DNA of 64,000 nucleotides from Candidatus Aenigmatarchaeota archaeon (GTDB taxonomy: Archaea > Aenigmatarchaeota > Aenigmatarchaeia > CG10238-14): NCBI GenBank assembly GCA_030018415.1, contig JASEGC010000001.1, forward strand, positions 323,067-387,066. Reading direction: 5' to 3'. Under the pieces are notes generated by a model. That model was not told the origin of the DNA. It worked only from the letters and a program-made list of their open reading frames with translations, and ran no database searches. Each line of letters starts with the position of its first letter. Position 1 is the first letter of the stretch. This document shows, one piece after another, positions 228 through 61,440 of this stretch. Both the position numbers and the translations under genes were made by a program.

Positions 228-1319
228 TCAACTTTCTATCAGTTTGATGTATTTTTCAGCAATTTTAGACCAGTCTAACTCCTTTTCAGCAAATCCCCCC
301 CCATTTTTCCCAAGAATTTTTCTTTTTTTAATATTTTCTGCTAAGTCTAACATTTTTTCGGTTAAATCTCTTTCATTCCCAGGCTCAAAAAGCAAACCAC
401 TATTGCTTTTTTTCACAACTTCACTCAAACCGCCCACATTTGATGCAATAATTGGTCTACCACAAGCCATAGCTTCTGCAATGACAATCGCAAAAGCTTC
501 TGAGTATTCTGAAGGAATTACTACTATATCTGAAGCTCTATAAATTTTTGGTAATTTTTTATGCTCCTTTTTACCGAGAAGCTTTACATTTGTAATTTTT
601 TCTGAACTAATAAGAGTTTTAATTTTCCTCTCCTCAGGCCCACTTCCGATAATCCATAACTCAAATCTCTCTGGGTTCAAATTTCTCATAGCTGCTAGTA
701 ATGTGTATACACCTTTCTTTTTCAGGAGTCCGCCGACGTATAAGAAAAAAATTTTTTCTTTTTCTTTAATTTTTGAAGGATAAAACAGTTTGGTATTCAC
801 ACCATTATAGATAACTTCGCTATCCAAACCTACTGTTTTTTTAACCTCTTTTTTCACAAAGTTGCTTATTGATACTATTTTGTCTGATGAACCAAACAAC
901 AAAGGATAATATAAAGGTTTTGTAAGTTCTCTCGGTCTACTTTGAAAGCAAAAAATGCTTTTGAATTTTTTTATTTTCTTTAACAGAAAAATTGAGTAAA
1001 TATCTGACCATTGACATGAAATTATAACATCAAAATTGAAATTCATCAAAAATGGGAATGATGAGATAGAAAGCGATGCTGATTCGATTAATGAACTGAT
1101 TTCCTCAAATGGTCTTCGCCCATATATCAATGATTCTCTCTTTATTATTGGAAATTTCAATAAATTAACTTTTATTTTTTTTCTTGGAGTTAAATTTTGC
1201 CCACAAATTAAATATACATCAAACCCTTTCTTTACGAATTCTCTACTAATATTTTCTGCCCAAATCTCTATTCCTCTAAATATTCTTCCATAACCAGAGC
1301 AGGGTATTAAAATTCTCAT
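228..1319 (-). CDS. Glycosyltransferase family 4 (GT-B fold)
   Basis: 363-aa ORF; C-terminal region 'EYSEAFAIVIAEAMACGRPIIASNVGGLSEVV' matches the Glycos_transf_1/GT4 signature. Confidence 0.8.
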   Translation of the reverse strand: MRILIPCSGYGRIFRGIEIWAENISREFVKKGFDVYLICGQNLTPRKKIKVNLLKFPIIKRESLIYGRRPFEEISSLIESASLSISSFPFLMNFNFDVIISCQWSDIYSIFLLKKIKKFKSIFCFQSRPRELTKPLYYPLLFGSSDKIVSISNFVKKEVKKTVGLDSEVIYNGVNTKLFYPSKIKEKEKIFFLYVGGLLKKKGVYTLLAAMRNLNPERFELWIIGSGPEERKIKTLISSEKITNVKLLGKKEHKKLPKIYRASDIVVIPSEYSEAFAIVIAEAMACGRPIIASNVGGLSEVVKKSNSGLLFEPGNERDLTEKMLDLAENIKKRKILGKNGGGFAEKELDWSKIAEKYIKLIES

Positions 1320-2352: not shown

Positions 2353-2814
2353 ATGATATTTATGAAAGTATGTATAACTTGTAGTGCTGGAGGTCATTTA
2401 ATAGAATCCTTTAGGTTATTGCCAACAGTAAAAAAATATGATTTTTTCTATTTCACCTTTTTTGTGAAACATTTAAAAAAAACACTGAAAAAATATAGAG
2501 TTTATTTTACCATAAATCCAAAAAGAGGCCCGATAAAATTTCTAAAAGTAATATTCGATTCGATAAAGGTCTTGTTAAAGGAAAAACCAAACGTTATAAT
2601 ATCAACGGGTGCTGGTGTTACAGTACCTCTATGTCTGCTAGGTAAATTTTTCTTTAGGACAAAGTTGATTTATGTCGAGTGCTCTGCACAAGTTTATAAA
2701 CCATCTTATGCAGGTAGAGTGCTTTATTGGTTTGCAGACATGTTTTTTGTTCAATGGCCTTTTTTAGCTAAAGTATATGGAAAGAAAGCAGTGTATGGTG
2801 GATTATTAATATGA
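2353..2814 (+). CDS. Alg14-like glycosyltransferase accessory subunit (membrane-anchoring half of a bipartite GT28-type enzyme)
   Basis: 153 aa; 'CSAGGHLIE' GGH motif and size typical of the Alg14/Cps14F/EpsF family; overlaps the next gene by 4 nt. Confidence 0.6.
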   Translation: MIFMKVCITCSAGGHLIESFRLLPTVKKYDFFYFTFFVKHLKKTLKKYRVYFTINPKRGPIKFLKVIFDSIKVLLKEKPNVIISTGAGVTVPLCLLGKFFFRTKLIYVECSAQVYKPSYAGRVLYWFADMFFVQWPFLAKVYGKKAVYGGLLI

Positions 2815-4019: not shown

Positions 4020-5003
4020 TCAAAATCTTTTAAAATACGGAGGATTTACCATAAACCTTCTTATCTGCAATTCTGTTACCTTCCTTCCCCTTTGTACCTT
4101 TTTTCTTAATTTTAATACTCTTGGCAAATCCTTCATAGCGTCTTTTATTGCTTTTAGATTGACCAATGAACCTCTTGCAAGACCTCTTAAAATTGATAGC
4201 ACATTCCAAGTGATAATAAATGGCGAATAGAGTATTAAAGAACTTAGAGAAAAATTTTTAATTATCATCCAAAGCCAATTTCTGTGTGCATAGTAAGCTC
4301 CCCTTTCTGAATACTTTCCCATAGTTGTGCCAACTTCATGTTGAACTGTAACAGGAACATAAACGGATTTCCACCCCCTTAATCTCATCCTCCATCCCAA
4401 ATCAGCATCTTCATTGTAAATAAAAAATTCTGAATCTAACAAACCAACATCTTCTAATGTTTTTTTTCTGTACATACAGGCAACATTGTTCACTGCAAAA
4501 ACTTCTTCAACTTTATCATATTGGCCAATGTCTTTTTCTTTCCAACCTCGGTATCTCACTAGACCATCTTTAGAAGCTATAGTACCAGCAGCGTTGATTA
4601 TCTTTGGATTACGCATAAACACAAGTTTTGGACCAATAGCACCGATTTTTTCATCAGATTCAGCTATTTTTACCATTTCCATTAACCAATTTTTATTTGG
4701 TTTTGTGTCATTTGCTAAATTGCAGATGTACTTACCTTTAGCTACTCTCATTCCAACGTTGTTACCTTCTGCACAACCAAGATTTCTTCCATTTTCTATA
4801 ATTTTTACTTCTGGATAGTTCTTTTTTACAAATTTTACTGAGTTATCTGTAGAACCATTATCGGAAAGAATAACTTCAAAACTTGGATAGGTTTGATTAA
4901 AAACAGCATCTAAACAACGCTTAATAATTTTTTTACCATTCCAATTAAGAACTACTACAGAAACTAAAGGATGCTTACTTTTTAACTTAATATTATTCAC
5001 CAA
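4020..5003 (-). CDS. Glycosyltransferase family 2
   Basis: 'VSVVVLNWNGKKIIKRCLDAVFNQTYPSFEVILSDNGSTDNS' GT2 N-terminal signature. Confidence 0.8.
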   Translation of the reverse strand: MVNNIKLKSKHPLVSVVVLNWNGKKIIKRCLDAVFNQTYPSFEVILSDNGSTDNSVKFVKKNYPEVKIIENGRNLGCAEGNNVGMRVAKGKYICNLANDTKPNKNWLMEMVKIAESDEKIGAIGPKLVFMRNPKIINAAGTIASKDGLVRYRGWKEKDIGQYDKVEEVFAVNNVACMYRKKTLEDVGLLDSEFFIYNEDADLGWRMRLRGWKSVYVPVTVQHEVGTTMGKYSERGAYYAHRNWLWMIIKNFSLSSLILYSPFIITWNVLSILRGLARGSLVNLKAIKDAMKDLPRVLKLRKKVQRGRKVTELQIRRFMVNPPYFKRF

Positions 5004-5107
5004 TAAACTAACTATTATTTAGGTTTAATAACGGATATAATTATAGAAAAATGGAGATAGACAACCGAACCTAGAGATAAACAACTAATAGAGAACTTCT
5101 TTATTTT

Positions 5108-6790
5108 TTAGTGAGTAGTGTTTAATACAATAAAAGTTCCAATCTTGAAATTTGGGTATTTTTCAATGGCATAATTCAATTGGTTTGGCAAACCAGCTAA
5201 AATATACTCGTCTATTATGGCATATCTAACATTGTATTTCAAAATGGTATCTTCAAAGGCAGTAAAGTTTTTTACTATCATATGATGTCTACTCACACTA
5301 AAAAACGGTTGGTTAGAATAAATCGCAACATCTGGTGGGGAGATGATTGTTTCATCTGGGCTAACATTATTTTTGACGAATTTAACTGTTTCTTCCAAGC
5401 CATATGATCCGTAATCGTATATCGTATCAAAAGTAGCTAAGATATGAATGCCGTTGATGTAAATGGAAGTTGCTAACAGAAGTACAACTACATAAAAAGC
5501 CAAATGATTCTGATACTTCTTATTGAAAATAAATGACAAAAGTATAACCGGTGCGAAATAAATCGCGCTAACTAATGCGACATCTCCTAAATTGTAACCC
5601 AGTCTAGGTGTTATAGTAAATGGGTCTTTTAGGAGTGATGTATAGTAAATTATCAGAAGAAACAAAATCACAACACCAAGTAAACATTGCTTTAGTTTGA
5701 TAGGTCGAATTACACCAGATACCCAATAAGCTATTAAAATGGAAAATGGGGCTAGGAGTACGTAATGGTATCTAGGGTAACCGTACGGAGCTGATGGCAA
5801 GATAATTGTATATAGAATTAAAACAAGTAGCCCATAAATTAACAAAAAATAACATTCATCTCTCTTATGTTTTGAAAACAATTTAAAAAAGAAAAATAAA
5901 CTAGTAGTGTGTATTAACACAAAAAATGCTGGAGAGAGTCTAAATGATAAAATTTGCAATATATTCAGAATGTATAATGGTTTCAAAAAGAATGTGGACG
6001 ATACAGAAGCTTGCCACTTAAAGATACAATTAAAATCAAGGTTATACACTGTTGTAGCAACGTACCATATAGAAAGCATTATAAAAATTCCAATCAACGC
6101 TATCACTATCGAATATACAATACCAAGCTTGAATTTTCCTTTTAGAATGTAATATGATAAAACTACAGGTGGCAAAAGTATGGGTGTGGTTTCTTTTACA
6201 AGGAGGCTCAATCCGAACATTAAACCAAGACCCAACAAGTATTTATTTTTTAATCTAAGATCTTTTGACTTTTTTACAATCCAAATAAATAAAAACACGA
6301 AAGAGAGGAGTACAAAATTAAGTACGGTGTTATCATTTTCTATAAGTAATGAACCACTTACAGCAAATGGGGTAATTGTATAGAAGAATATACTAAGATA
6401 CGCAAGTGCCATATTCCTTTTTCCAAACAGCTCTTTTGTTATGAGATATACTAATACAAGAGAAAATATGTTAAATAAAAATGCGAATGACCTTATAGAA
6501 ATAAACGATAGACCAAAAATACGTGTATAAGCTGTTAATAACAAAAGCCATGTTGGTATATGCCATATTGGATAGCATTCTTTTAGGTTGAAATCTTCTC
6601 CACCTCGATATATATCAAGATATAATATACCCTTATTTAACCCATCCACAACTTTCATAAAAATAGCTTCATCTTTTACAGGTGGTTTATTAAGACCACT
6701 TATAACAAAAATCAAATATAGTACAACTGATATATATGCAAGAAGCTTTGACAAAATTTGCCATGGTATTTTCTTTGTCTTCATTTTCAT
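5108..6790 (-). CDS. Polytopic membrane protein, putative GT-C fold glycosyltransferase (ArnT/PMT-like)
   Basis: 560 aa, more than 10 hydrophobic segments; sits in the glycosylation cluster; family assignment tentative. Confidence 0.4.
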   Translation of the reverse strand: MKMKTKKIPWQILSKLLAYISVVLYLIFVISGLNKPPVKDEAIFMKVVDGLNKGILYLDIYRGGEDFNLKECYPIWHIPTWLLLLTAYTRIFGLSFISIRSFAFLFNIFSLVLVYLITKELFGKRNMALAYLSIFFYTITPFAVSGSLLIENDNTVLNFVLLSFVFLFIWIVKKSKDLRLKNKYLLGLGLMFGLSLLVKETTPILLPPVVLSYYILKGKFKLGIVYSIVIALIGIFIMLSIWYVATTVYNLDFNCIFKWQASVSSTFFLKPLYILNILQILSFRLSPAFFVLIHTTSLFFFFKLFSKHKRDECYFLLIYGLLVLILYTIILPSAPYGYPRYHYVLLAPFSILIAYWVSGVIRPIKLKQCLLGVVILFLLIIYYTSLLKDPFTITPRLGYNLGDVALVSAIYFAPVILLSFIFNKKYQNHLAFYVVVLLLATSIYINGIHILATFDTIYDYGSYGLEETVKFVKNNVSPDETIISPPDVAIYSNQPFFSVSRHHMIVKNFTAFEDTILKYNVRYAIIDEYILAGLPNQLNYAIEKYPNFKIGTFIVLNTTH

Positions 6791-9930: not shown

Positions 9931-11109
9931 ATGTTTGCAAATTTGTCTATAATACCATCTCTGGCTAAATTCAGGTCTCTATTCACAAAGCCAAGCTTTA
10001 AACATGCTGTCAAATACATACATGGGCTGATAGCAGGAGAGAGGAAAAGAAAGAATGTCAAATCGATAAACGACATGTTTCTTGATAGGAAGGATCAAAG
10101 CTCGATGAACAGGTTCTTGACAAAGTACAGATGGGATGAGAATGAGCTCAACCACCGCAGGCTTAGAACTTTTCTCATAAGAAAAAATGGTGGTGTGTTG
10201 ATCGTTGATGATTCTTTGATCGAAAAGAGCGGTAAAAGAATGGAGGGTGTTGGTTTTTTATTTGATCATTCGAAGCACAAGAACATACTCTGTCACAACA
10301 TCGTATTTACTCATTATGTCAATGGTAATGAACAGATGCCCATGCATCTCGAGCCTTATCTCAAGAAAGAAGTTGTTAAGGATTTGGGAAAGAAATTCAA
10401 AACAAAGATAGAAATCGCAATCGAGCTGCTCAAGAAAGGACTGAACTACATCAATCCATCGGTCATACTGTTTGATGCATGGTATTTAGCCAAAAAACTG
10501 GTCAAATCGCTGAAAAAACCGTGGATTTCAAGGGTTAAGACCAATAGACTTGTTTGGCAGAAAGACAGCTGGATGCCTGTAAAGAAATTGGTTAGAGCCA
10601 TAGCAATAGAAAAGTTCAGGCCGGTGGACATAAAGATCTCCGATAAGAAATATCGTTGGATAACATCACTTACTATCAAGCTAAAAGGTATTGACAAAGT
10701 CAAACTGGTTGTACTGAAAAAGAAAATCAATTCGGTCAAAGCAATCGTTCTAGCTACCAATCTAGAATGGTCTGTCCAATCGATAGTAAAAACTTATAAG
10801 AAGAGGTTCTGCATAGATGTATTTTATAGGGACTGTAAACAGTATCTCGGCTTAGGAGAGTATCAACTAAGGAAGATACAGGGGATAGTTAAACACCTAT
10901 TCCCAGTGTTCCTGGCATACTCTCTGCTAAAGAGTCTGAAACAGTCCCTATCAGGGTTTGTTAAATCAAAGCTCAGAACAATAGGTCAGCTCTGCAGAGT
11001 GCTCAAACAAAAGATATTGAGCTACTTTGTTGGTTGGACGATAGGCCTGTTCCATAAGGTTGGGTCTGTAGATAAGGTTATAAACATAGTCATAGAATGT
11101 TTAAACTAA
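9931..11109 (+). mobile_element. IS4/IS701-like DDE transposase gene, apparently intact
   Basis: 392 aa; 'VLIVDDSLIEKSGKRMEGVGFLFDHSK' DDE-region signature; inserted between a GT2 gene and a radical SAM gene; IS ends not resolved. Confidence 0.55.
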
Positions 11110-11142: not shown

Positions 11143-12546
11143 ATGAGAATCCTTTTAGTAAATCCTCCAATGAAACAGGGAGAGATTTATTCCAAATATG
11201 CTAAAGGAGCACCTTGCTTTCCACCATTGGGTTTATGTTATATAGCTTCTATGCTAGAAAAAAATCATAATATCAAAATAATTGATGGGGTCACGGAAAA
11301 ATTAACTTTACAACAACTACGGAATGCTATACAAAAATTTGATCCTGATATTGTTGGTATTACCTCGACTACGGTCAGTTTTCTTAGGGCTGTAGATACA
11401 GCAAAAGTGGTAAAATCGGTTGATAAAGATATAATTGTCATATTGGGTGGTCCTCATGTAAGTGCAATTCCAAAAGAAACTTTTGAAAATTATAAATGTT
11501 TTGATATTGGTGTAGTTGGTGAGGGGGAATATACAATGTTAGATTTGTTGCAAGCAATCGAAAAACAACGTAAGCTTAAAACCATAAGGGGAATCGTATT
11601 TAGAAAAAACAGAAAAATAATTATTACACAAGGAAGAGAGTCGATCAAAAACTTGGATGAGTTGCCATTTCCAGCGAGACACTTACTCCCAAACTTTCCA
11701 GATGTATATAATCCACCACACTATGAAAAGAGATTACCAGTAGCACATATGATTACTAGTAGAGGTTGCCCTTATAGATGCATTTTCTGTACTCAAGCTG
11801 TATTTGGAAGAACTTGGCGTGGGAATTCTCCTAAGTATATGCTGCAAGAAGTAACTCATTTAATTGAGAAGTTTAAGATAAAAGATATATTATTTCAAGA
11901 TGATCTCTTTACATTTTCTCAATTAAGGGTTATGGAATTTTGTGATTTACTAATAAATGAAAATATAGATTTAACATGGAGTTGTTCTACCAGAGTTAAT
12001 CTCGTCAACAAATTATTACTAGAGAAGATGTACAAAGCTGGATGTAGGACGATCTATTATGGAATCGAATCTGGCGATCAAAACATTTTAAATTTTATGA
12101 ATAAAGGTATTACCTTGAAACATGTTATTAAGGTCATAAATTTGACTAAATTATCTGGAATAGAATCTTATGGTTCATTTATATTAGGTTTTCCAACAGA
12201 AACTCCAGAAACCATAGAGAAAACTATAGAATTTGCACTAAAACTTCCCCTAGATGCAGTAAGCTTTCATATAACCGTTCCTTACCCAGGCACAGTATTA
12301 AGTCAGATTGCCAATCAATATGGTACTACATGCAGACCAGATGATTGGAGTCGATATAGAGGACACCCAGATGATCTTGTTTTTATTGCACATGGCTTAA
12401 CTGATAAATTTCTAATTAAAAAACAAAAAGAGGCGTATAGAAGATTTTATTTTAGATTTCCAATGATTCTCAGAAAACTTAAAGAGATTGATAGTTTAGG
12501 AAAGGTCAAGTTATATATTAACGGATTTTTGTCACTCATTTCATAA
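11143..12546 (+). CDS. Cobalamin-binding radical SAM enzyme (class B rSAM, COG1032-like)
   Basis: N-terminal Rossmann-like B12-binding region, then 'SRGCPYRCIFCTQ' CX3CX2C radical SAM motif; 467 aa. Confidence 0.8.
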   Translation: MRILLVNPPMKQGEIYSKYAKGAPCFPPLGLCYIASMLEKNHNIKIIDGVTEKLTLQQLRNAIQKFDPDIVGITSTTVSFLRAVDTAKVVKSVDKDIIVILGGPHVSAIPKETFENYKCFDIGVVGEGEYTMLDLLQAIEKQRKLKTIRGIVFRKNRKIIITQGRESIKNLDELPFPARHLLPNFPDVYNPPHYEKRLPVAHMITSRGCPYRCIFCTQAVFGRTWRGNSPKYMLQEVTHLIEKFKIKDILFQDDLFTFSQLRVMEFCDLLINENIDLTWSCSTRVNLVNKLLLEKMYKAGCRTIYYGIESGDQNILNFMNKGITLKHVIKVINLTKLSGIESYGSFILGFPTETPETIEKTIEFALKLPLDAVSFHITVPYPGTVLSQIANQYGTTCRPDDWSRYRGHPDDLVFIAHGLTDKFLIKKQKEAYRRFYFRFPMILRKLKEIDSLGKVKLYINGFLSLIS

Positions 12547-21637: not shown

Positions 21638-23107
21638 ATGAAAATACTACTTTTGAACCCATCATTCTTACCAAGATACACAAGAGCTTCGCGCAGCCCA
21701 TGCGTGGCACGAGGAGGTACTTTTTACTATCCTTATTTTTTGGCTTATGCCTGCGGGGTTTTAGAGAAAAATGGTTTTGACGGTAAAGTTAAGCTAGTAG
21801 ATGCTGTTGCTAATGAATGGGATCATAAAAAAACCGTAAGGTTTGTTAAATTTTTTGCTCCAAATTTAGTTGTTATTGATACGTCTACACCGAGCATATA
21901 CAATGACATAGAAGTTGCAACAAAGATTAAAAAAGCTTTACCAAAGGTTCACATCAACTTAGTTGGTACTCATCCTACAAGAGTAACAGATGAAACTTTT
22001 GGTTTGTCTAAAGCTATAGATTCAATCTGTAGAGACGAGTATGATTATACTTTAGTCGATTTAGCTAAAGCTATAGAAAAAGGTAAACCTTTAAAAGGAA
22101 TAAAAGGACTTTCCTTCAGGAAAGATGGAAAAATTATTCACAATGAACCGAGGGAAAGAATTAAAAATTTAGATGAACTACCATTTGTCTCAGAAGTCTA
22201 CGAAAAACACTTTGGAATAGGAGGAATTAAAAGATATTTCTATGCTTCTTTAAAACATCCACAAGTAACAATTTTAACAGCCAGAGGATGTCCTTTCAAC
22301 TGCTTATTTTGTAATATACCGTTCAAAGCTTCCTATAGGGCGAGATCTCCCAAAAATGTAATCGAAGAATTTGAGTATATCCAAACTGAATTGCCAGAAG
22401 TTAATGAAGTGATGATAGAAGACGACACCTTTCCTATATCAAAAGAAAGAACTTTGAAGGTTTGCAAGCTTTTGAAAGAAAGAGGAATTAAATTGACATG
22501 GTCCTGTAACGCAAGAGTAAACACCGATTTGGAAACTTTGAAAGCCATGAAAGAAAGTGGTTGTCGTTTGCTTTGTGTTGGTTTTGAGTCCCCAGTTCAA
22601 TCAGTTTTGGATGAAGTACACAAAAAAACAACTGCTGAAATGCAAATCAAGTTCATGAATGATTGTAGAAAAGTTGGTTTATTGGTTAACGGTTGTTTTA
22701 TCCTTGGGATGCCTGGAGATACGAAAGAAACTATAAGAGAAACGATAGAGTTTGCGAAAAAACTAAATCCAGATACAGCACAATTCTACTCGGCTTACGC
22801 TTATCCTGGAACAGAGATGTGGGATTGGGCAAAAGAAAACGGTTATTTAACTTCAGAGAGGTATGACGCTTTGCTAACAGAAGAAGGTTATCATAAAGGA
22901 AACATTAATCTTCCTGATCTACCGGCTGAGGAAGTTGATAGATTATGCAGAGAAGCTCTAAAGGAGTTCTATCTCAGGAAAGATTACATATTTTATAAGC
23001 TTAGTCAAATCATTACCAATTTTGATGAAGCCAGAAGGACATTGATGTCAGGAAGGTTTTTTTTCAAGCATATACTCCTACCACAACCACAGGCAGCATC
23101 TCCTTAA
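21638..23107 (+). CDS. Cobalamin-binding radical SAM enzyme (paralog 2)
   Basis: 489 aa; 'ARGCPFNCLFCNIP'; near-identical N-terminus to 26806-28278 ('LLLNPSFLPRYTRASRSPCVARGGTFY'). Confidence 0.8.
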   Translation: MKILLLNPSFLPRYTRASRSPCVARGGTFYYPYFLAYACGVLEKNGFDGKVKLVDAVANEWDHKKTVRFVKFFAPNLVVIDTSTPSIYNDIEVATKIKKALPKVHINLVGTHPTRVTDETFGLSKAIDSICRDEYDYTLVDLAKAIEKGKPLKGIKGLSFRKDGKIIHNEPRERIKNLDELPFVSEVYEKHFGIGGIKRYFYASLKHPQVTILTARGCPFNCLFCNIPFKASYRARSPKNVIEEFEYIQTELPEVNEVMIEDDTFPISKERTLKVCKLLKERGIKLTWSCNARVNTDLETLKAMKESGCRLLCVGFESPVQSVLDEVHKKTTAEMQIKFMNDCRKVGLLVNGCFILGMPGDTKETIRETIEFAKKLNPDTAQFYSAYAYPGTEMWDWAKENGYLTSERYDALLTEEGYHKGNINLPDLPAEEVDRLCREALKEFYLRKDYIFYKLSQIITNFDEARRTLMSGRFFFKHILLPQPQAASP

Positions 23108-26805: not shown

Positions 26806-28278
26806 GTGGTATCAATGAGAATCTTATTACTTAACCCACCTTTTTTACCGAGATACTCTAGACAGAGTAGATCGCCTTGTGTGAGTAAAGGTGGTACCTT
26901 CTATTTGCCATATTATTTGGCATATGCGGCAGGAGCTTTGGAGAAATCAGGATTTTCTGATATTAAGCTCATGGATGCTATAGCAAAGAATTGGTCTCGT
27001 AAAGAAACGATAAATTTTATCAAGTCCTTTAATCCAGATTTGATAATTGTTGATACAAGTACTCCAAGCATCCATAATGATGTCGAAGTTGCAGCTGAGA
27101 TAAAAAAAGCTTTACCAAATTCTCATGTTAACCTAGTTGGGACCCATCTAACCAGAAAAACAGAAGAAACTTTTGGTTTATCAGAAGCTATAGATTCAAT
27201 TTGTAGAGGAGAATATGATTTTACCTTAGTTGAGCTAGCCGAAGCTATAGAAAGTGAAAAACCTCTAAGAGAGATTGAAGGCTTATCTTTCAGAGAAGAT
27301 GGGAAAATTTTTCATAATCCTGAAAGACCATTGCTTACTTCAAAAGAATTGGATGAATTACCGTTTGTTTCTGAAGTCTATAAAAAACACTTGAACATAT
27401 GGGATTACTTTTATGCGTCTCTACTCTACCCACAAGTCACCATCTTAACTGCAAGAGGATGTCCGTTTAGTTGTAGCTTCTGTAACATACCTTTCAAAAA
27501 TTCTTACAGACCTAGAAGTCCAGAGAATGTGGTTGATGAATTTGAATACATTCAAGATGAATTACCGGAAGTAAGAGAAGTTATGATAGAGGACGATACT
27601 TTTCCAGTTTCAAAGAGAAGAACCATCGAAATTTCTGATTTGTTGATTAAAAGGAAAATAAAGATTTCTTGGTCATGTAATGCAAGAGTCGATACAGATT
27701 ACGAAACTTTGAAAAGAATGAAAGATGCTGGTTGCAGGCTATTATGCGTGGGGTTCGAGAGTCCTGTTCAAAAAACTCTAAACACTGTTCATAAAAAAAC
27801 AACTGCTAGAATGCAATTAGAGTTTATGAAGAATTGCAACAAACTTGGTTTACTGGTTAATGGGTGTTTTATTCTTGGCTTACCAGGAGATACAGAGGAA
27901 ACTATAAAAGAAACGATAGAATTTGCAAAAAAACTTAATCCTGATACTGTTCAATTCTATCCTCTTTTCTTATACCCAGGAACGGAAGCCTGGGATTGGG
28001 CAGAAGAAAATGGGTATCTTGCCAGCAAAGATTACTCAGCTTTGTTAACTAGAGAAGGTAAACACTTAAGTAATGCAGATTTACCTGGTTTAAACCATCT
28101 AAGGGCTACTTATCTTTGTGATAAGGCATTGAGAGAGTTCTACCTTCGACCAAAATACATTTTTTACAAACTCTTTCAGATTCTTTCCAACTTAGGAGAA
28201 GCTCAAAGGACTTTTCTTTCAGCAAAAATTTTCTTCAAGAACTTAATTTCTCCTTCCGTCCAACAAGCGTCTCTTTAA
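26806..28278 (+). CDS. Cobalamin-binding radical SAM enzyme (paralog 3)
   Basis: 490 aa; 'ARGCPFSCSFCNIP'; likely true start at 'MRILLLNPP'. Confidence 0.8.
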   Translation: MVSMRILLLNPPFLPRYSRQSRSPCVSKGGTFYLPYYLAYAAGALEKSGFSDIKLMDAIAKNWSRKETINFIKSFNPDLIIVDTSTPSIHNDVEVAAEIKKALPNSHVNLVGTHLTRKTEETFGLSEAIDSICRGEYDFTLVELAEAIESEKPLREIEGLSFREDGKIFHNPERPLLTSKELDELPFVSEVYKKHLNIWDYFYASLLYPQVTILTARGCPFSCSFCNIPFKNSYRPRSPENVVDEFEYIQDELPEVREVMIEDDTFPVSKRRTIEISDLLIKRKIKISWSCNARVDTDYETLKRMKDAGCRLLCVGFESPVQKTLNTVHKKTTARMQLEFMKNCNKLGLLVNGCFILGLPGDTEETIKETIEFAKKLNPDTVQFYPLFLYPGTEAWDWAEENGYLASKDYSALLTREGKHLSNADLPGLNHLRATYLCDKALREFYLRPKYIFYKLFQILSNLGEAQRTFLSAKIFFKNLISPSVQQASL

Positions 28279-30498: not shown

Positions 30499-31361
30499 AG
30501 GGGTGTGCAAAATTACAACACACCCCAGCTCTAATTCTTATGTATGAACAAAGCCTATGAAATAGTTAGACTCTTGATAAATAAAAAGATTGTTCATGAA
30601 AAACATGGAAGAGGCAGAAAGGGCTACGGAGTACTGAGGAGGGTTAGACTTCTAGCGTATGCGATGCTCAAGAGGATACACACTGACAAGGGTTTGATAG
30701 AACACTTGAAGAAGAACCCAAGAGTAACGAGAATATTGGGATTCAAGACAATTCCACACAGAACAACTATAGGAAGGTGGAAGAACCATTCTGATGCATT
30801 AAAACAAACCTTCAACAGATTGAGTGACATGATTCAATCGATGATACCGACTGAGCTTCTGATAGTAGACTCGACTCCTCTAGAGGATGATGATCCTGAT
30901 GCAAGAGTAGGCTTCTACTCCAGAGGACCATTCAAGGGATTCAAGACTCATTCGAGCATTAACCAGGCTGGCATACCTTTGAGAGCAGAAGTGACAACAG
31001 GGAACAGACACGATTGTCCATTGCTGCCAAAGTTACTAGTCAAGTCAGTCCAAACTCTGGGGGATTCAGGATATGACAGTAAGAGTAACAGGAAGGCTAT
31101 CAGGAGCATTGGTAGCAAATCAATCATAGCCAAGAACAGAAGGAGGTCGAAGAAGAGGAGATGGGTGCCGAAGATTCTCAAGAAGAAACGATACATAGTT
31201 GAACAGTTCAATTCATTACTCAAAGAAGTTCTCAGAGAATGCTGGAAGAGGTTCAGAGGATTAGAGAAGAAAGCTTCAGTAGTCTACTCAGCGTTGATAT
31301 CGATACTGTTGATTGCTCTACAAGCGATGATAAGAAAGTTAATTAATTTTGCACACATCTA
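30499..31361 (+). mobile_element. IS5-family insertion sequence inserted into a GT4 gene
   Basis: Terminal inverted repeats 'gtgtgcaaaatta' at 30503-30515 and, reverse-complemented, 31344-31356. Flanked by 10-bp direct repeats 'tacaaacttt' (30489-30498, 31362-31371) consistent with a target-site duplication. Contains a transposase ORF. Confidence 0.6.
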
Positions 31362-31386
31362 TACAAACTTTTTAAATAGGGAGTGA
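30544..31386 (+). CDS. IS5-family DDE transposase
   Basis: 280 aa; 'LLIVDSTPLED', 'GDSGYDSKSNRKAI', 'YIVEQFNSLLK' match the IS5 D-D-E blocks; ORF runs slightly past the right IR. Confidence 0.65.
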   Translation: MNKAYEIVRLLINKKIVHEKHGRGRKGYGVLRRVRLLAYAMLKRIHTDKGLIEHLKKNPRVTRILGFKTIPHRTTIGRWKNHSDALKQTFNRLSDMIQSMIPTELLIVDSTPLEDDDPDARVGFYSRGPFKGFKTHSSINQAGIPLRAEVTTGNRHDCPLLPKLLVKSVQTLGDSGYDSKSNRKAIRSIGSKSIIAKNRRRSKKRRWVPKILKKKRYIVEQFNSLLKEVLRECWKRFRGLEKKASVVYSALISILLIALQAMIRKLINFAHIYTNFLNRE

Positions 31387-39727: not shown

Positions 39728-41005
39728 ATGAAAGTAGTGATGGATGCGCACATCCATTCTCGGTTTAGTAGAGCCACCAGTGGAAACATAACGATTTCGA
39801 ACTTGGAAAGGTATGGAAGGATGAAAGGTGTCAACCTCATCGGTACAGGGGATTTTACGCATCCCACGTGGTTGTCTGAGTTGAAAGAAAATTTGATAGA
39901 AGATGGTTCTGGGATATTAAAAACAAAAACAGGGTTTAATTTTATTTTGACGGCTGAAATCTCAAATATTTATGTTCAAGACGGTAAACAAAGAAGAGTT
40001 CATAATATTATCCTTTCCCCAAGCTTTGATGTTGTAGAACAAATAAATAGTGAATTATTGAAACATGGAAGATTGGATTATGACGGTAGACCGATTTTTG
40101 GTTTCACTTGTTCTGAATTAGTGGAGATGATAATGTCAATCTGTAGGGAATGTATGATTATCCCCGCTCACATACTTACCCCATGGTTCTCAATTTTTGG
40201 CTCCAAATCTGGTTTTGACTCAGTAGAAGAATGCTTCAAAGACCAGACAAAACATATTCATGCCCTAGAGACAGGCTTATCAAGCAATCCTGCCATGAAC
40301 TGGAGAGTTTCTTCTTTAGATAAATACACATTGGTTTCCTTTTCAGATGCCCACTCATGCAATCCTTGGAGGTTAGGTCGCGAGAATTGTGTATTAGATG
40401 TTAACAAACTCACTTATAAAGAAATTACTGACACCATTAAGAAAAAAGAAAAAGGGTTTTTGTTCACCACCGAATTCTTCCCTCAGGAAGGAAAGTATTT
40501 CTTCGATGGGCATAGAAACTGTAACGTATCATTACATCCAAAAGAATCGATTAAAATGAATAATTTCTGCCCCGTTTGCAAAAGAAAATTGACAGTAGGA
40601 GTGCTACATAGGATAGAAGAATTGGCCGATAGGCCCGAAGGATTCGTTCCAAAGAATGTCATACCTTTCAAGAGTTTGATACCACTTTCTGAATTGATTA
40701 AAACCATACTGAGAATAGATACGATATACTCAAAAACTGTTTGGGAAGAATACAATAAACTGATAAAGGAATTTAAGAATGAATTGAACGTTTTACTTGA
40801 CGTTCCAAAAGAAGAGTTGATGAAGGTAACTTATGAAAAGGTAGCAGATACGATAATAAAAGTCAGAGAAGGAGAAGTGAAATACATCGCTGGTTATGAT
40901 GGTGTTTATGGAAAGCCTGTGTTCGATGAAGAAGAATTTAAGAAACGTGAAGAAAAACAGAAAGACGTAAAAATTCATACTCAAAAAAGATTAATCGATT
41001 TTTAG
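39728..41005 (+). CDS. PHP-domain metal-dependent nuclease, EndoQ-like (TIGR00375-type) with C-terminal zinc ribbon
   Basis: 'MDAHIHSRFSRATSGN...NLIGTGDFTHPTW' PHP N-terminus; 'CPVCKRKLTVGVLHRIEEL' zinc finger; about 425 aa as in archaeal endonuclease Q. Confidence 0.5.
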   Translation: MKVVMDAHIHSRFSRATSGNITISNLERYGRMKGVNLIGTGDFTHPTWLSELKENLIEDGSGILKTKTGFNFILTAEISNIYVQDGKQRRVHNIILSPSFDVVEQINSELLKHGRLDYDGRPIFGFTCSELVEMIMSICRECMIIPAHILTPWFSIFGSKSGFDSVEECFKDQTKHIHALETGLSSNPAMNWRVSSLDKYTLVSFSDAHSCNPWRLGRENCVLDVNKLTYKEITDTIKKKEKGFLFTTEFFPQEGKYFFDGHRNCNVSLHPKESIKMNNFCPVCKRKLTVGVLHRIEELADRPEGFVPKNVIPFKSLIPLSELIKTILRIDTIYSKTVWEEYNKLIKEFKNELNVLLDVPKEELMKVTYEKVADTIIKVREGEVKYIAGYDGVYGKPVFDEEEFKKREEKQKDVKIHTQKRLIDF

Positions 41006-41075
41006 GGTCTGTAGTCTAATGGTAGGACACTGCTCTCACACAGCAGAGAATTGGGTTCGATTCCCAACAGACCCA
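41005..41075 (+). tRNA. tRNA-Val (anticodon CAC)
   Basis: Manual cloverleaf: acceptor GGGTCTG/CAGACCC, D arm GTCT-AATGGTA-GGAC, anticodon arm CTGCT-CTCACAC-AGCAG, T arm TTGGG-TTCGATT-CCCAA, discriminator A; no encoded CCA. Confidence 0.8.
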
Positions 41076-57743: not shown

Positions 57744-57829
57744 TGCAGGGGGAGAGATTTGAACTCTCGAACTCACTAAGAGACTAGGCTCTGAACCTAG
57801 CGCATTTGACCAGACTTTGCTACCCCTGC
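57744..57829 (-). tRNA. tRNA-Leu (anticodon CAG), 86 nt, no intron
   Basis: Manual fold: GCAGGGG-TA-GCA-AAGTCTGGTCAAA-TGC-G-CTAGG-TTCAGAG-CCTAG-TCTCTTAGTGAGTTC(long variable arm)-GAGAG-TTCAAAT-CTCTC-CCCCTGC-A. Confidence 0.8.
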
Positions 57830-58109: not shown

Positions 58110-58235
58110 TGCAGGGACTGGGATTTGAACCCAGGAACTCAATTCTCCAAGATTCATTATATCTTTGTCTAAGAGACAGGATACCTTAACTCATTCTTAA
58201 GTCCTGCGCCTTTGACCAGACTTGGCAACCCCTGC
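58110..58235 (-). tRNA. tRNA-Leu (anticodon UAA) with two predicted introns (13 nt after position 37; 27 nt in the variable arm)
   Basis: Same acceptor/D/T architecture as the CAG isoacceptor. Anticodon arm CAGGA-CTTAAGA...TCCTG is interrupted by 'ATGAGTTAAGGTA'. Variable arm TCTCTTAG...TGAGTTC is interrupted by 'ACAAAGATATAATGAATCTTGGAGAAT'. Mature length after removal is 86 nt, equal to the CAG isoacceptor. Confidence 0.65.
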
Positions 58236-58258
58236 TTCAATAAGATATTGTAGAATAG

Positions 58259-59041
58259 TTATTTTAATTTACTTAAATCTTTTGATAATTCTTCCAACTT
58301 TTCTTCAAGGATATCCATGGATTTCAACACGATTTCTTCTGGCTTTAACCCACAAGTTGATTCGACATTAAACAAAAACTTTGTCTCATCAGCCTCAACC
58401 TTTATCGCTCCGTTAGAAAGTTCCACACATTGAAGACACATATTACATTCTAGAGGTTTATCGACTTCCAATTTTTTATTCTGGAAAACAAACACATGCT
58501 TTGGACATCTTTTCTCATAATCACTCTTGTTTCCACCCTTTCCTATGATTATATTCGGAACATTCCTGTAACCGACAACAGCGGCCTGCCATTTCGCATG
58601 CTCTTTTCCCAGATTCAACTCTGCGAATGCTTCGAGTTCTAACTCCTGTCCTTCTGTCAATTCCACGATTGGTATGTTATCATAAACAGGTCTCACTTTT
58701 TCATCTGAAGGTACCATATCGCCAGAGTAAACCATACAAGGCCCTTTTTTCTTAAGCTTAAAACTTACTTGACAATGTACACAACCTTTCCCTCCACACT
58801 TACAATTTCCCTTTAAGTTGTAGAATTTTGCATCGAAGACTAGAGGAATCAAACCAAGTCTACTTGCTATTATCTCATCCCATAGGACAGAATCATTCTT
58901 GTGAAAATCAACCCATTCTATTGCCATTGTGGGGATTTCAGAGATCATCACTCTTCTCAGTTCACCAGCGAGTGCAGGAGTTATGTCTTCGACGACAAAT
59001 CTTATTTTTTTGTCGCCTTTTTCCAGAATTTTCACTTTCAA
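58259..59041 (-). CDS. rpoD: DNA-directed RNA polymerase subunit D (Rpo3)
   Basis: 260 aa; N-terminal 'MKVKILEKGDKKIRFVVEDITPALAGELRRVMISEIPTMAIEWV'; 4-Cys cluster 'CKCGGKGCVHCQ'. Confidence 0.9.
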   Translation of the reverse strand: MKVKILEKGDKKIRFVVEDITPALAGELRRVMISEIPTMAIEWVDFHKNDSVLWDEIIASRLGLIPLVFDAKFYNLKGNCKCGGKGCVHCQVSFKLKKKGPCMVYSGDMVPSDEKVRPVYDNIPIVELTEGQELELEAFAELNLGKEHAKWQAAVVGYRNVPNIIIGKGGNKSDYEKRCPKHVFVFQNKKLEVDKPLECNMCLQCVELSNGAIKVEADETKFLFNVESTCGLKPEEIVLKSMDILEEKLEELSKDLSKLK

Positions 59042-59217
59042 TCAATCACCAGTCATCTAGATTTTCTATTGATGAAAATTTAAGTTTATAGTTTTTTATG
59101 GACACCAAAAATTGAAAAACTGATTGAAAGATTCCAATATCATACTAGAAAAAAACATTACAATTTTGGAAGAGGTTCAAATTTGCCAGAGACAAGAATT
59201 TTCTCAACAAGAATAAA

Positions 59218-59802
59218 ATGAAGCCAATTTCTAAATTAACAGAAGAAGAACTTAAGAGATGGTTCGACGTAGTTAAGGAAGTAACAAACAATTTCTCTGA
59301 TTTTGATCCAAGAATTTTAATGCAAAGTCCTCAATACATTTTAATGTTTAGCTTAGTCCTTGGTTTTGATCATAAATTTTTGCAAGGGTGTCGGACAAAA
59401 ATCCCAGAACTGTACGAGCTTGGGAGCATTTGGAGCTTCAAATGAGATGTCGGACTGCCAAAGATGTTATGAATAAAATCAGGGAATTGTTTGATAGAAT
59501 AAATCCTATAATTTCTTTTGAGACGGTTCTAAGGAATTTTAGAATATTTACTGCTTCTTCGGGCACAGGAATGTTGAAGCTGGATGAAATGGGGATTAAG
59601 GTTCTCGACTAATCATGGATTCACTATATTTGAAAAAGAAATAGTCGAACTTCTGAATGAGAATGGATGTGGGCAATTTCAAGTACACTCAATAATAGAA
59701 GGCGTGAAGAAAAGGTTTAATGTCGATTTTGTCGTTGAAAATAATTTATTTCCGAAAGTGGTTATTGAAGTTTTTACATTCAACCGAAAAAAAATTCCAT
59801 AA
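59218..59802 (+). pseudogene. Frameshifted ORF of unknown function inserted between rps11 and rpoD
   Basis: Three overlapping ORFs (59218-59445, 59388-59612, 59584-59802) in frames 1/0/1 look like one about 195-aa gene broken by two frameshifts; opposite orientation to the surrounding operon. Confidence 0.3.
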
Positions 59803-59880
59803 TTGTCATAGTAGGTTATTACTATCGGCCATAGGTTTCAAATGATAACGCTAAATATAAAGTATTTAACTAAAATAAGT

Positions 59881-60321
59881 CTAAACTCGCCTTCCCCTCC
59901 TCCCCCCCTTGCGTTTTGTTCCATCAGTTGGGATCGGTGTAACATCTTCTATAGTACCAATCTTTAACCCACTTCTTGCTAATGCTCTGATGGCAGGTTG
60001 TGCACCAGCTCCAGGAGCCTTCTTGTGATGTCCTCCCATTCCCCTCACTCTTATGTCAACACCGATGATACCCTTTTCTTTTGCATCTTCTGCTGCGCGT
60101 TTCGCTGCCAACATTGCTGGAAAAGGATCCCCCCCCTCCCTATCTTTATCCGTCATCATTCCACCAGAATACCTTGCGATAGTTTCGGCTCCAGTTATGT
60201 CAGTTATGTGAATGATCGTGTTGTTCACCGTAGAAAAAATATGGGCAATTCCCCAAGTACCTGTTTTATAGGCCTTTGTCTCGTATTTTCTTCTTTTGCT
60301 TATTCTTTCTTTTTCTGCCAT
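59881..60321 (-). CDS. rps11: 30S ribosomal protein S11 (uS11)
   Basis: '[32 protein letters not shown]...[14 protein letters not shown]'. Confidence 0.95.
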
Positions 60322-60810
60322 TCATCCACCTGTTTTCGTCGCTATTTTTAAATCTGAGCCTTTATAGAATGAAATTTTATCTTCTAACTCCCTTGTTACG
60401 ATGAAACTTGGATATATAATCTTTCTACCATCGACTGCTATGTGACCGTGAGTTATCAATTGCCTTGCATGTTTTATCGTGTTCGCTAAATTCTTCTTAG
60501 AGACGAAGGTTTGTAGTCTTCTCTCCAGTAAGTTTTCTGCAGTCAAACTCAAAACAACATCAAGGTTTGCACCATTCTCCAATAAACCCATTCTGTAAAG
60601 TTTATCTATCAATATTTTTTCTTGGTTTTTATCTCTTTTTGCCGCTAGACTTCTTGCCCTTCTCCTAAAAGATCTCAGGATTGACTCTGCTTTCCATATC
60701 TCACGTTTCTTTGTCAAACCATAAGTCTTCATCAAATCATTCTCTTTCTTTATCCTTTCACTGTCCCAAGGTGATCTTGGTTTTTGAAATTTTTTCTTTA
60801 TCTTTCTCAT
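60322..60810 (-). CDS. rps4: 30S ribosomal protein S4 (uS4)
   Basis: 'LENGANLDVVLSLTAENLLERRLQTFV...IAVDGRKIIYPSFIV' S4 domain. Confidence 0.95.
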   Translation of the reverse strand: MRKIKKKFQKPRSPWDSERIKKENDLMKTYGLTKKREIWKAESILRSFRRRARSLAAKRDKNQEKILIDKLYRMGLLENGANLDVVLSLTAENLLERRLQTFVSKKNLANTIKHARQLITHGHIAVDGRKIIYPSFIVTRELEDKISFYKGSDLKIATKTGG

Positions 60811-61280
60811 TATTTCACCTTCTTAGCAGGCATGACTTTCTTCCTAACGACACCGACACTCCTTCCTTTCCTGAAAGAGCTTCTTGTTCTTTGTCCCCTT
60901 ACAGGCAAACCAAACATGTGTCTGATACCTTTGTACGATTTTATTTTTATCATCCTTTTTATGTCCTGTTCTTGCATGAACTTTAGGTCCGAACCCGATA
61001 CATGTCTATCATCTCCAGATTCTATATCTCTTCTCCTGTTCAACATCCATTGAGGTATGCCAAATTTTGCTGGGTTTTCTATCGTTTCTTCTATTTTCTT
61101 TATCTCAGAAGCAGTCAGTGTACCTACCTTTCTGTTGCGGTCAAAGTTATGGGTTAGACAAACAGCGTTAGCCATAGCATTTCCCACACCCTTTATTCGC
61201 AAGAGAGAGGGGAATAACTGTTTCTCACCTTTAATATCCACGCCTGCAATTCTCACAATTCCTTTAATTTCCTCTGGCAT
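60810..61280 (-). CDS. rps13: 30S ribosomal protein S13 (uS13)
   Basis: 'VRIAGVDIKGEKQLFPSLLRIKGVGNAMANAVC...YKGIRHMFGLPVRGQRTRS'. Confidence 0.95.
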   Translation of the reverse strand: MPEEIKGIVRIAGVDIKGEKQLFPSLLRIKGVGNAMANAVCLTHNFDRNRKVGTLTASEIKKIEETIENPAKFGIPQWMLNRRRDIESGDDRHVSGSDLKFMQEQDIKRMIKIKSYKGIRHMFGLPVRGQRTRSSFRKGRSVGVVRKKVMPAKKVK

Positions 61281-61326
61281 ACGATCAACATTATTTTAAT
61301 GTAAAAGTTTTTAAAACTTCTTAAAA

Positions 61327-61440
61327 TGGACCGGCAGGGATTTGAACCCTGAGCCTCTTCATTGCAGCTTGAAGCTCATGCCTTTTCCGCTGAACTAAGG
61401 AAGCGATCTTGGCATCATTCTACCATTGATCTACCGGCCC
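61327..61440 (-). tRNA. tRNA-Ala (anticodon UGC) with two predicted non-canonical introns (12 nt in D arm; 30 nt at about 33/34)
   Basis: Acceptor GGGCCGG/CCGGTCC with G3:U70 wobble (Ala identity element) and discriminator A; T arm CAGGG-TTCAAAT-CCCTG. Removing 'ATGATGCCAAGA' restores D arm GATC-AATGGTA-GATC. Removing 'AGTTCAGCGGAAAAGGCATGAGCTTCAAGC' gives anticodon arm CTTCC-TTTGCAA-TGAAG and variable loop AGGCT, for a 72-nt mature tRNA. Exact splice positions ambiguous. Confidence 0.55.

Follow-up and report, generated by a model that had tools for sequence, protein, structure and literature searches.

A two-intron tRNA-Leu(UAA) gene, with one predicted intron in the variable arm, in a Candidatus Aenigmatarchaeota archaeon

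The introns of archaeal tRNA genes are flanked by the bulge-helix-bulge (BHB) motif, made up of two bulges of 3 nt and a helix of 4 bp, and relaxed variants that lack one bulge have also been described (PMC3239211). The exon-intron borders fall between bulge residues 2 and 3 (PMC4307357). Genes with multiple introns of this kind are known in the Thermoproteales, for example in Pyrobaculum (Sugahara et al. 2008; summaries in PMC4033280 and PMC8450103). In this study, we analysed a tRNA-Leu(UAA) gene in a stretch of 64,000 nt, hereafter the window, from contig JASEGC010000001.1 of an archaeon of Candidatus Aenigmatarchaeota (DPANN). The gene contains two inserts, of 13 and 27 nt, and it is very probable that both are introns removed by the splicing endonuclease from a functional tRNA-Leu(UAA).

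As far as the summaries of that work describe them, the Thermoproteales genes resemble the present one in having several BHB introns per gene, at the canonical position 37/38 and at non-canonical sites, and in the turnover of these positions between close relatives. Thermoproteales are hyperthermophilic crenarchaea, whereas the host in this case is a mesophile-like, AT-rich DPANN archaeon with 34% GC (31–38% across the window). Non-canonical positions given in reviews are 3/4, 20/21, 22/23, 25/26, 29/30, 30/31, 45/46, 53/54, 56/57 and 59/60 (PMC4090602). The hairpin loop of the class II variable arm is absent from these published position lists (PMC4090602); the primary Thermoproteales catalogue is outside this comparison, and novelty of the site is not claimed. 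Introns in the variable region have been reported in Aeropyrum pernix tRNA-Lys (PMC4307357), and one was found in a nuclear tRNA of the red alga Cyanidioschyzon merolae (PMC3728597). Those of A. pernix occur at 45/46, in the short variable loop of class I tRNAs, whereas here the hairpin loop of a long variable arm is split, and the BHB, unlike that of A. pernix, borrows the variable-arm stem in a shifted register.

Within DPANN, disrupted tRNA genes have been documented in ARMAN-2/Micrarchaeum, Pacearchaeota and Woesearchaeota, whose tRNA sets are often incompletely predicted (PMC3239211, PMC5829648), and EndA variants with special inserts correlate with increased tRNA gene disruption (PMC5829648). 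The window agrees with these reports in its strict and relaxed BHB introns at non-canonical sites and in the failure of standard tools to find the full tRNA set (PMC3239211, PMC5829648). However, the genomes of those papers exclude Aenigmatarchaeota, and the ARMAN-2 examples are in the T-loop (53/54, 59/60), not in the variable arm. In the Asgard archaea Atabeyarchaeia and Freyarchaeia, over half of the tRNA genes have multiple introns, and in the supplementary table of that 2024 study, columns are provided for as many as four introns in a gene (PMC11291895). They belong to a different superphylum from the window archaeon, and the comparison with them is one of intron number. Multi-intron tRNAs are already documented, and a two-intron tRNA-Leu(UAA) is of the type expected for DPANN, with an intron at a rare position. 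The present gene would add Aenigmatarchaeota to the lineages with such tRNAs and would document the variable-arm loop as an intron site in a class II tRNA.

Structure of the gene and its junctions

The gene is on the minus strand, which had been left out of an earlier reading of the window (the preliminary description). Minus-strand coordinates are used throughout for this gene, sequences are in RNA letters, and a vertical bar marks an exon-intron junction. The precursor is laid out as exon 1 | intron 1 | exon 2 | intron 2 | exon 3, and its parts and immediate surroundings are as follows:

58110-58235 (-), tRNA-Leu(UAA) gene, precursor of 126 nt
58196-58235 (-), exon 1, 40 nt, GCAGGGGUUGCCAAGUCUGGUCAAAGGCGCAGGACUUAAG: acceptor 5' strand, D-arm, 5' strand of the anticodon stem and loop bases 32-37
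58197-58199 (-), anticodon UAA, inside exon 1
58183-58195 (-), intron 1, 13 nt, AAUGAGUUAAGGU, at position 37/38, after G37
58169-58182 (-), exon 2, 14 nt, AUCCUGUCUCUUAG: base 38, 3' strand of the anticodon stem and 5' half of the variable arm
58142-58168 (-), intron 2, 27 nt, ACAAAGAUAUAAUGAAUCUUGGAGAAU, splitting the long variable arm in its loop, at UUAG|U
58110-58141 (-), exon 3, 32 nt, UGAGUUCCUGGGUUCAAAUCCCAGUCCCUGCA: 3' half of the variable arm, T-arm (CUGGG UUCAAAU CCCAG), acceptor 3' strand and A73
58259-58267 (-), A/T-rich box TTAAAATAA, putative TATA element, 24-32 nt upstream of tRNA base 1 and overlapping the rpoD stop codon
58098-58103 (-), T6 run, beginning 7 nt past A73
57744-57829 (-), tRNA-Leu(CAG), intronless, 86 nt, 280 nt downstream of the UAA gene (ARAGORN; Rfam 55.5 bits)

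The preliminary description compared this gene with the neighbouring tRNA-Leu(CAG) and divided an excess of 40 nt into 13 nt after position 37 and 27 nt in the variable arm. The excess (126 - 86 = 40 nt) and its division are exact; the distance between the two genes, given as 270 bp, is in fact 280 nt. The two genes were also said to share their D and T arms. It is true of the D-loop and T-loop sequences, but the stems differ by paired changes, GCC/GGC in the UAA gene against GCA/UGC in the CAG gene for the D-stem and CUGGG/CCCAG against GAGAG/CUCUC for the T-stem.

When both introns were taken out, the resulting 86-mer gave a cloverleaf fold (-31.9 kcal/mol), variable-arm hairpin included, and ARAGORN called it tRNA-Leu(UAA). 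This agreed with the identity proposed earlier: the anticodon reads UAA, and joining the exons restores a class II tRNA-Leu whose discriminator is A73. The class II features of the spliced tRNA are the variable-arm hairpin CUC-UUAGU-GAG, discriminator A73, the anticodon UAA and the D-loop AGUCUGGUCAA, with G18G19 and additional bases; CCA is not encoded. All stems are intact, with the G7-U66 wobble as the sole non-Watson-Crick pair, and the variable arm without intron 2, UCUCUUAGUGAGUUC, has the same sequence as in tRNA-Leu(CAG). From its sequence, the A/T-rich box is a possible archaeal TATA element, and the T6 run is likely to be an archaeal oligo-T terminator. UUA accounts for 32% of the leucine codons in 27 Pfam-supported open reading frames (ORFs) of the window. 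As it is the commonest leucine codon, the product of a tRNA-Leu(UAA) gene is needed.

The gene is poorly visible to standard detection. The Rfam tRNA family RF00005 covers 58110-58235(-) from end to end (model positions 1-71) with 39.1 bits against a gathering score of 29, and in its alignment the anticodon loop has 16 additional bases and the variable region a long insertion. With default settings, ARAGORN did not detect the gene in the window, where it found only tRNA-Val(CAC) at 41005-41075 and tRNA-Leu(CAG) at 57744-57829(-).

The junctions were fixed beforehand by alignment to intronless genes, and the precursor was then scanned for BHB geometry with a purpose-written program. For intron 2, the scan gave precisely the junctions defined by homology, G67|A68 and U94|U95 in precursor numbering. 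The motif is a strict 3-4-3 BHB (hBHBh', with outer helix h, central helix H and inner helix h'). The outer helix is UC/GA (2 bp), and the central helix UCUU/GAGA has four of four pairs, formed by the variable-arm 5' strand UCUU and the GAGA at the 3' end of the intron. Both junctions fall between bulge bases 2 and 3, in the bulges AG|A and AU|U. The inner helix CAA(A)GAU/AUCUUG comprises 3+3 bp with a bulged A and closes a 7-nt loop, AUAAUGA. The intron is preceded by UCUCUUAG and followed by UGAGUUC.

For intron 1, the motif is relaxed, of the hBH (bulge-helix-loop) type. In it, UAAG of the intron is paired with C32-U33-U34-A35 (CUUA/UAAG, 4/4), the 3' site is in a 3-nt bulge, GU|A, beside the anticodon stem, and the 5' site is in a 7-nt hairpin loop. 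The outer helix has 6 bp in the geometry scan. The relaxed bulge-helix-loop form is usual in very short introns. The preliminary description had proposed BHB folding at the junctions as something to be looked for, and the outcome is a strict motif for the 27-nt insert and a relaxed one for the 13-nt insert.

The intron-2 motif was also compared with chance. In 200,000 shufflings of the 27 nt of intron 2, a full BHB at the fixed junctions was obtained in 0.3%, and when both junctions were slid by 1-4 nt in either direction the motif was lost. Unconstrained RNAfold of the precursor recovered the helix and the 3-nt bulge of intron 1; neither the cloverleaf nor the variable-arm BHB was recovered in that fold. 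Energy minimisation alone is an unusable test for BHB motifs.

In the proposed pathway, a precursor of about 126 nt would be transcribed from its own promoter and would end at the T6 run. EndA would recognise each BHB and cleave between bulge bases 2 and 3 at all four sites; the three exons would then be ligated by an enzyme of the RtcB type, giving a class II tRNA of 86 nt that reads UUA. The variable-arm strands would pair one register off in the precursor (UC/GA), and the stem would re-form as CUC/GAG after excision. Since the two motifs are in separate arms and do not overlap, either splicing order would be possible.

Related genes and the weighing of explanations

The four closest metagenome-assembled genomes (MAGs) by RpoD, L001 to L004, have RpoD proteins 68-78% identical to that of the window (58259-59041, -), and two of them are labelled Candidatus Aenigmatarchaeota; remoter members of Aenigmatarchaeota show 47-55% identity. 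A DPANN-type lineage, which had been considered from the introns, agreed with this RpoD comparison. The syntenic tRNA-Leu(UAA) genes of L001, L002, L004 and, incomplete, L003 all have the 37/38 intron. In L001, L002 and L004 it is 13 nt long, AAUGACUUGGGAA, and its central helix is kept via U-A to U-G changes. The length of the 37/38 intron varies between 13 and 50 nt among 15 related tRNA-Leu(UAA) genes. Its central helix has all four pairs in ten of them and three of four in the other five, with intron-side strands that vary among UAAG, UGGG, UAGG and UGAG. Judged from these sequences, the canonical 37/38 intron is old in the clade.

The variable arm behaves differently. No insert interrupts it in the orthologues of L001, L002 and L004, and in L001 and L002 it equals the predicted spliced arm UCUCUUAGUGAGUUC letter for letter. 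Instead, these orthologues contain another second intron, which is about 26-31 nt long and separates the anticodon-stem 5' strand from base 32. The first 34 nt of exon 1 in the window are identical to L001 and L002, where the extra intron precedes CUUAAG, and the remaining exon sequence matches. The orthologues lack the variable-arm insert and have another second intron; non-canonical positions thus turn over among these close relatives, and rapidly so at an RpoD identity of 68-78%. Such rapid turnover fits the published idea of a co-evolution of endonuclease specificity and tRNA disruption.

Three further observations concern these relatives. The 37/38 introns of L005, L006, L008, L013, L016 and L017 (28-49 nt) contain CUGA and (A/G)UGAUGA-like motifs, for example CAAGAUGAUGAAAU in L006, CUCUGAUUGAUGAAG in L013 and CCCUGAGUUAUGGAUGAUGAGAG in L017, which resemble the D'/C' boxes of C/D guide RNAs. 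In L012, whose RpoD is 47% identical, the syntenic tRNA-Leu(UAA) at about 4818-5145 (+) is interrupted by an insert in the D-arm, by a 37/38 intron of 39 nt and by a T-loop insert of about 190 nt with repeat units AAGGGAAGG(C/T)GCAGA(G/A)C(A/T)TGAA(A/T)TCCCTTATCAACCC. In L001 (4780-8643; first-ranked in the RpoD search, with 75% identity, against 78% for L002), the tRNA-Leu(UAA) gene is 3.9 kb downstream of rpoD, compared with 24 nt in the window. The intervening DNA opens with an ORF whose N-terminus, MKNEQLISQFLQYMTAKGIGKGRLNNYK, is integrase-like by eye, and this arrangement suggests that an element was inserted beside the tRNA gene.

A C/D box guide RNA of the archaeal tRNA-Trp type was considered for the two window introns and rejected, as boxes C (RUGAUGA) and D (CUGA) are absent from both. 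A match to snoR66 at 58127-58169 reached 19.3 bits against a gathering score of 43.

Metagenome contigs were searched by a pattern scan for inserts of 10-40 nt within this variable arm. The scan yielded two more tRNA-Leu(UAA) genes, L081 and L082, in which 33 and 24 nt interrupt the variable arm at the same UUAG|U junction. In both, outer UC/GA pairs accompany a 4-bp helix (UCUU/AAGA and UCUU/GAGA) and the bulges AG|A and AA|U. The two inner helices, UGGUG/CACCA and ACCUUUU/AAAAGGU, are unrelated to each other and to that of the window. The three inner helices have 3(+3), 5 and 7 bp, and the central helix and the bulge geometry are constant (n=3). Here as at 37/38, the structure is constant while sequence and length drift, which marks a recognition element and not a retained arm. 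Shuffling of the L081 and L082 variable-arm inserts gave a motif at least as good in 1.3e-4 and 2.5e-5 of cases. The central and outer helices are paired in 18/18 cells, compared with 33-67% when the partner is slid (n=3 sequences); with so few sequences and an exon strand that does not vary, the shuffle control for this pair counting carried no information. From the three variable-arm regions aligned with MAFFT, RNAalifold recovered only the mature variable-arm stem and gave no evidence of covariation, because the intron interiors are unalignable.

ARAGORN identified the spliced forms of L081 and L082 as tRNA-Leu(UAA), and a strict BHB is present at only some of their junctions. A synteny check gave no match to RpoD near L081 or L082. 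The variable-arm loop may possibly be a conserved, uncatalogued intron site of divergent DPANN-like archaea, in a clade with exceptionally fragmented tRNA genes, and we put this forward tentatively. If it is true, the ordered multi-step splicing of tRNAs and the gain and loss of introns would have a natural study system in Aenigmatarchaeota-like archaea.

The fragmentation of the two metagenome genes was recorded separately. L081 at 424-672 (+), 249 nt, has five apparent inserts (8/9, 3' side of the D-arm, 37/38, variable arm and T-loop), and L082 at about 331-535 (-), about 204 nt, has four (D-arm, near 31/32, 37/38 and variable arm). According to older reviews, an archaeal tRNA gene has at most three introns, and the Asgard table of 2024 provides for up to four.

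Several points weigh against the interpretation of both inserts as spliced introns. Transcription, cleavage by EndA and ligation, and thus splicing itself, are steps that we infer from the DNA. Intron 1 is without an inner helix, and its 5' bulge is merged into the loop. The cloverleaf with both BHBs has -29.1 kcal/mol, compared with -36.0 for the best cloverleaf-constrained fold and -42.6 for the unconstrained fold; with such better-scoring alternatives, the variable-arm BHB is not the predicted ground state. Shuffled 126-mers yielded about 2.5 BHB-like matches each (h and h' >= 2). BHB-like geometry is therefore frequent by chance, and the motif is informative only at independently fixed junctions. 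There are only three sequences for the variable-arm site, and its central helix is without two-sided covariation because the exon strand is fixed. Finally, no EndA or RtcB Pfam family was found among the 50 ORFs scanned in the window of 64 kb.

The first alternative is that splicing removes the 13-nt intron alone and that the 27-nt insert stays in an unusually long variable arm, of about 42 nt. Class II tRNAs tolerate variation in the length of this arm. The cloverleaf-constrained RNAfold optimum pairs the region in another way (CUCU/GGAG and AGA/UCU) and favours this extended pairing over the BHB by about 7 kcal/mol. However, the same pairing is unavailable in L081 and L082, whereas the 3-4-3 BHB is found in all three genes, whose intron interiors are unrelated. 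Moreover, the 15-nt variable region of the closest orthologues equals the spliced prediction, and ARAGORN rejected the form with intron 1 alone removed as a plain tRNA. We regard a retained 27-nt insert as unlikely.

It could also be supposed that the gene is a decaying pseudogene with insertions and that a working tRNA-Leu(UAA) is elsewhere in the genome, of which 64 kb is visible; the low Rfam score of 39.1 bits and the ARAGORN miss would agree with decay. This is a little less likely again, as the stems are intact, the position after rpoD is conserved across archaea and both insertions are exactly in BHB motifs. In addition, UUA is the most used leucine codon, and by the account in PMC4307357 archaea usually have one gene per anticodon. 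A tRNA-Leu right after rpoD, in the form of an intronless 85-86-mer, is also found in Hadesarchaea, Methanothrix and other archaea.

A single 42-nt intron starting at base 39, in a tRNA-Leu(UAG), was the parse of ARAGORN with the -i option. It is very unlikely, since the anticodon would differ from that of all orthologues (UAA), the junctions are absent from the BHB matches of the geometry scan, and the block AUCCUGUCUCUUAG, an exon in every related gene, would be discarded. Self-splicing group I introns of the cyanobacterial and plastid tRNA-Leu(UAA) type have only the host gene tRNA-Leu(UAA) in common with this case and are excluded by size, a possibility that is barely conceivable given that a group I ribozyme core takes at least 200 nt and the present introns have 13 and 27 nt, that the organism is archaeal and that no Rfam intron family was found in the region at E <= 1. 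Endonuclease-spliced introns at both sites are thus the explanation that we prefer.

A second intron-bearing tRNA gene and the genome context

Two other genes of the neighbourhood are referred to below:

61327-61440 (-), tRNA-Ala(GGC), 114 nt, upstream of S13, with the G3:U70 identity pair
58259-59041 (-), rpoD (RNA polymerase subunit D/Rpb3), directly upstream of tRNA-Leu(UAA), with Pfam RNA_pol_A_bac and RNA_pol_L

The tRNA-Ala(GGC) gene at 61327-61440 was missed by ARAGORN and by Rfam, even at E <= 0.5. Compared with the 72-nt intronless orthologues of L005 (2410-2481) and L008 (2403-2474), it has three inserts, and the 37/38 position is free of them. The D-loop contains the first, of 12 nt, with bulges AG|A and AG|A and central helix UGGU/GCCA. 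The second, of 14 nt, lies at 33/34 and has a strict hBHBh' motif with central helix UUCC/GGAA. The third, 16 nt at 39/40, is relaxed and has 3/4 central-helix pairs after the removal of the second intron. The spliced 72-mer is a perfect cloverleaf, which ARAGORN called tRNA-Ala(GGC). The tRNA-Ala of L017 has the 33/34 and 39/40 sites too.

In L004, the tRNA-Ala(GGC) at 2395-2480 (+) has a 14-nt insert in its short variable loop, AG|AGCAUUGCCCGUAA|GCC. By eye, it forms a central helix GCGG/CCGU with bulges AG|A and AA|G, and these bulges are those of the tRNA-Leu variable-arm site.

In intron mode, ARAGORN misparsed both intron-bearing genes of the window, as tRNA-Leu(UAG) with one 42-nt intron and as tRNA-Phe(GAA) with one 21-nt intron. 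For annotation, it means that standard detectors miss or mis-parse essential tRNA genes in this lineage. With such failures, estimates of the completeness of DPANN MAGs and of their codon capacity will be wrong unless BHB-aware searches and orthologue comparison are used.

The gene order is tRNA-Ala, S13, S4, S11, rpoD, tRNA-Leu(UAA), tRNA-Leu(CAG). Archaeal genes of the window are AglB/STT3, RadA, an RPA-like gene, S13, S4, S11, S3Ae, S15, RpoD and class I GluRS. An exact-protein look-up with RpoD gave no match. The look-up with S13 and S11 gave the Logan contig L083 (SRR23186779), which is 100% identical to window 58202-61352. This contig ends within the T-arm of tRNA-Ala and the anticodon stem of tRNA-Leu(UAA), and it provides no independent view of the introns. 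SRR23186779 is a public sample that contains this organism.

Between S11 and rpoD there are 840 nt (59042-59880) with no long ORF, and L083 has the same sequence. On the plus strand, antisense to the operon, three overlapping ORFs of 72-75 aa lie in different frames (59218-59445, 59388-59612 and 59584-59802) and look like the remnant of a frameshifted gene. In L001, about 1540 nt separate the end of tRNA-Ala from the start of rpoD, and the coding sequences of S13, S4 and S11 add up to about 1400 nt, which leaves no space for an 840-nt insert in that genome, the only one compared.

At the other end of the window, positions 1-33800 form a large glycosylation island with many GT1, GT2 and GT4 glycosyltransferases, Alg14/Alg13-like genes, PMT_2, STT3, a flippase and asparagine synthase. 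Scattered among these are three paralogous B12-binding radical SAM genes (11143-12546, 21638-23107 and 26806-28278) and two DDE transposases, at 9931-11109 and 30544-31386.

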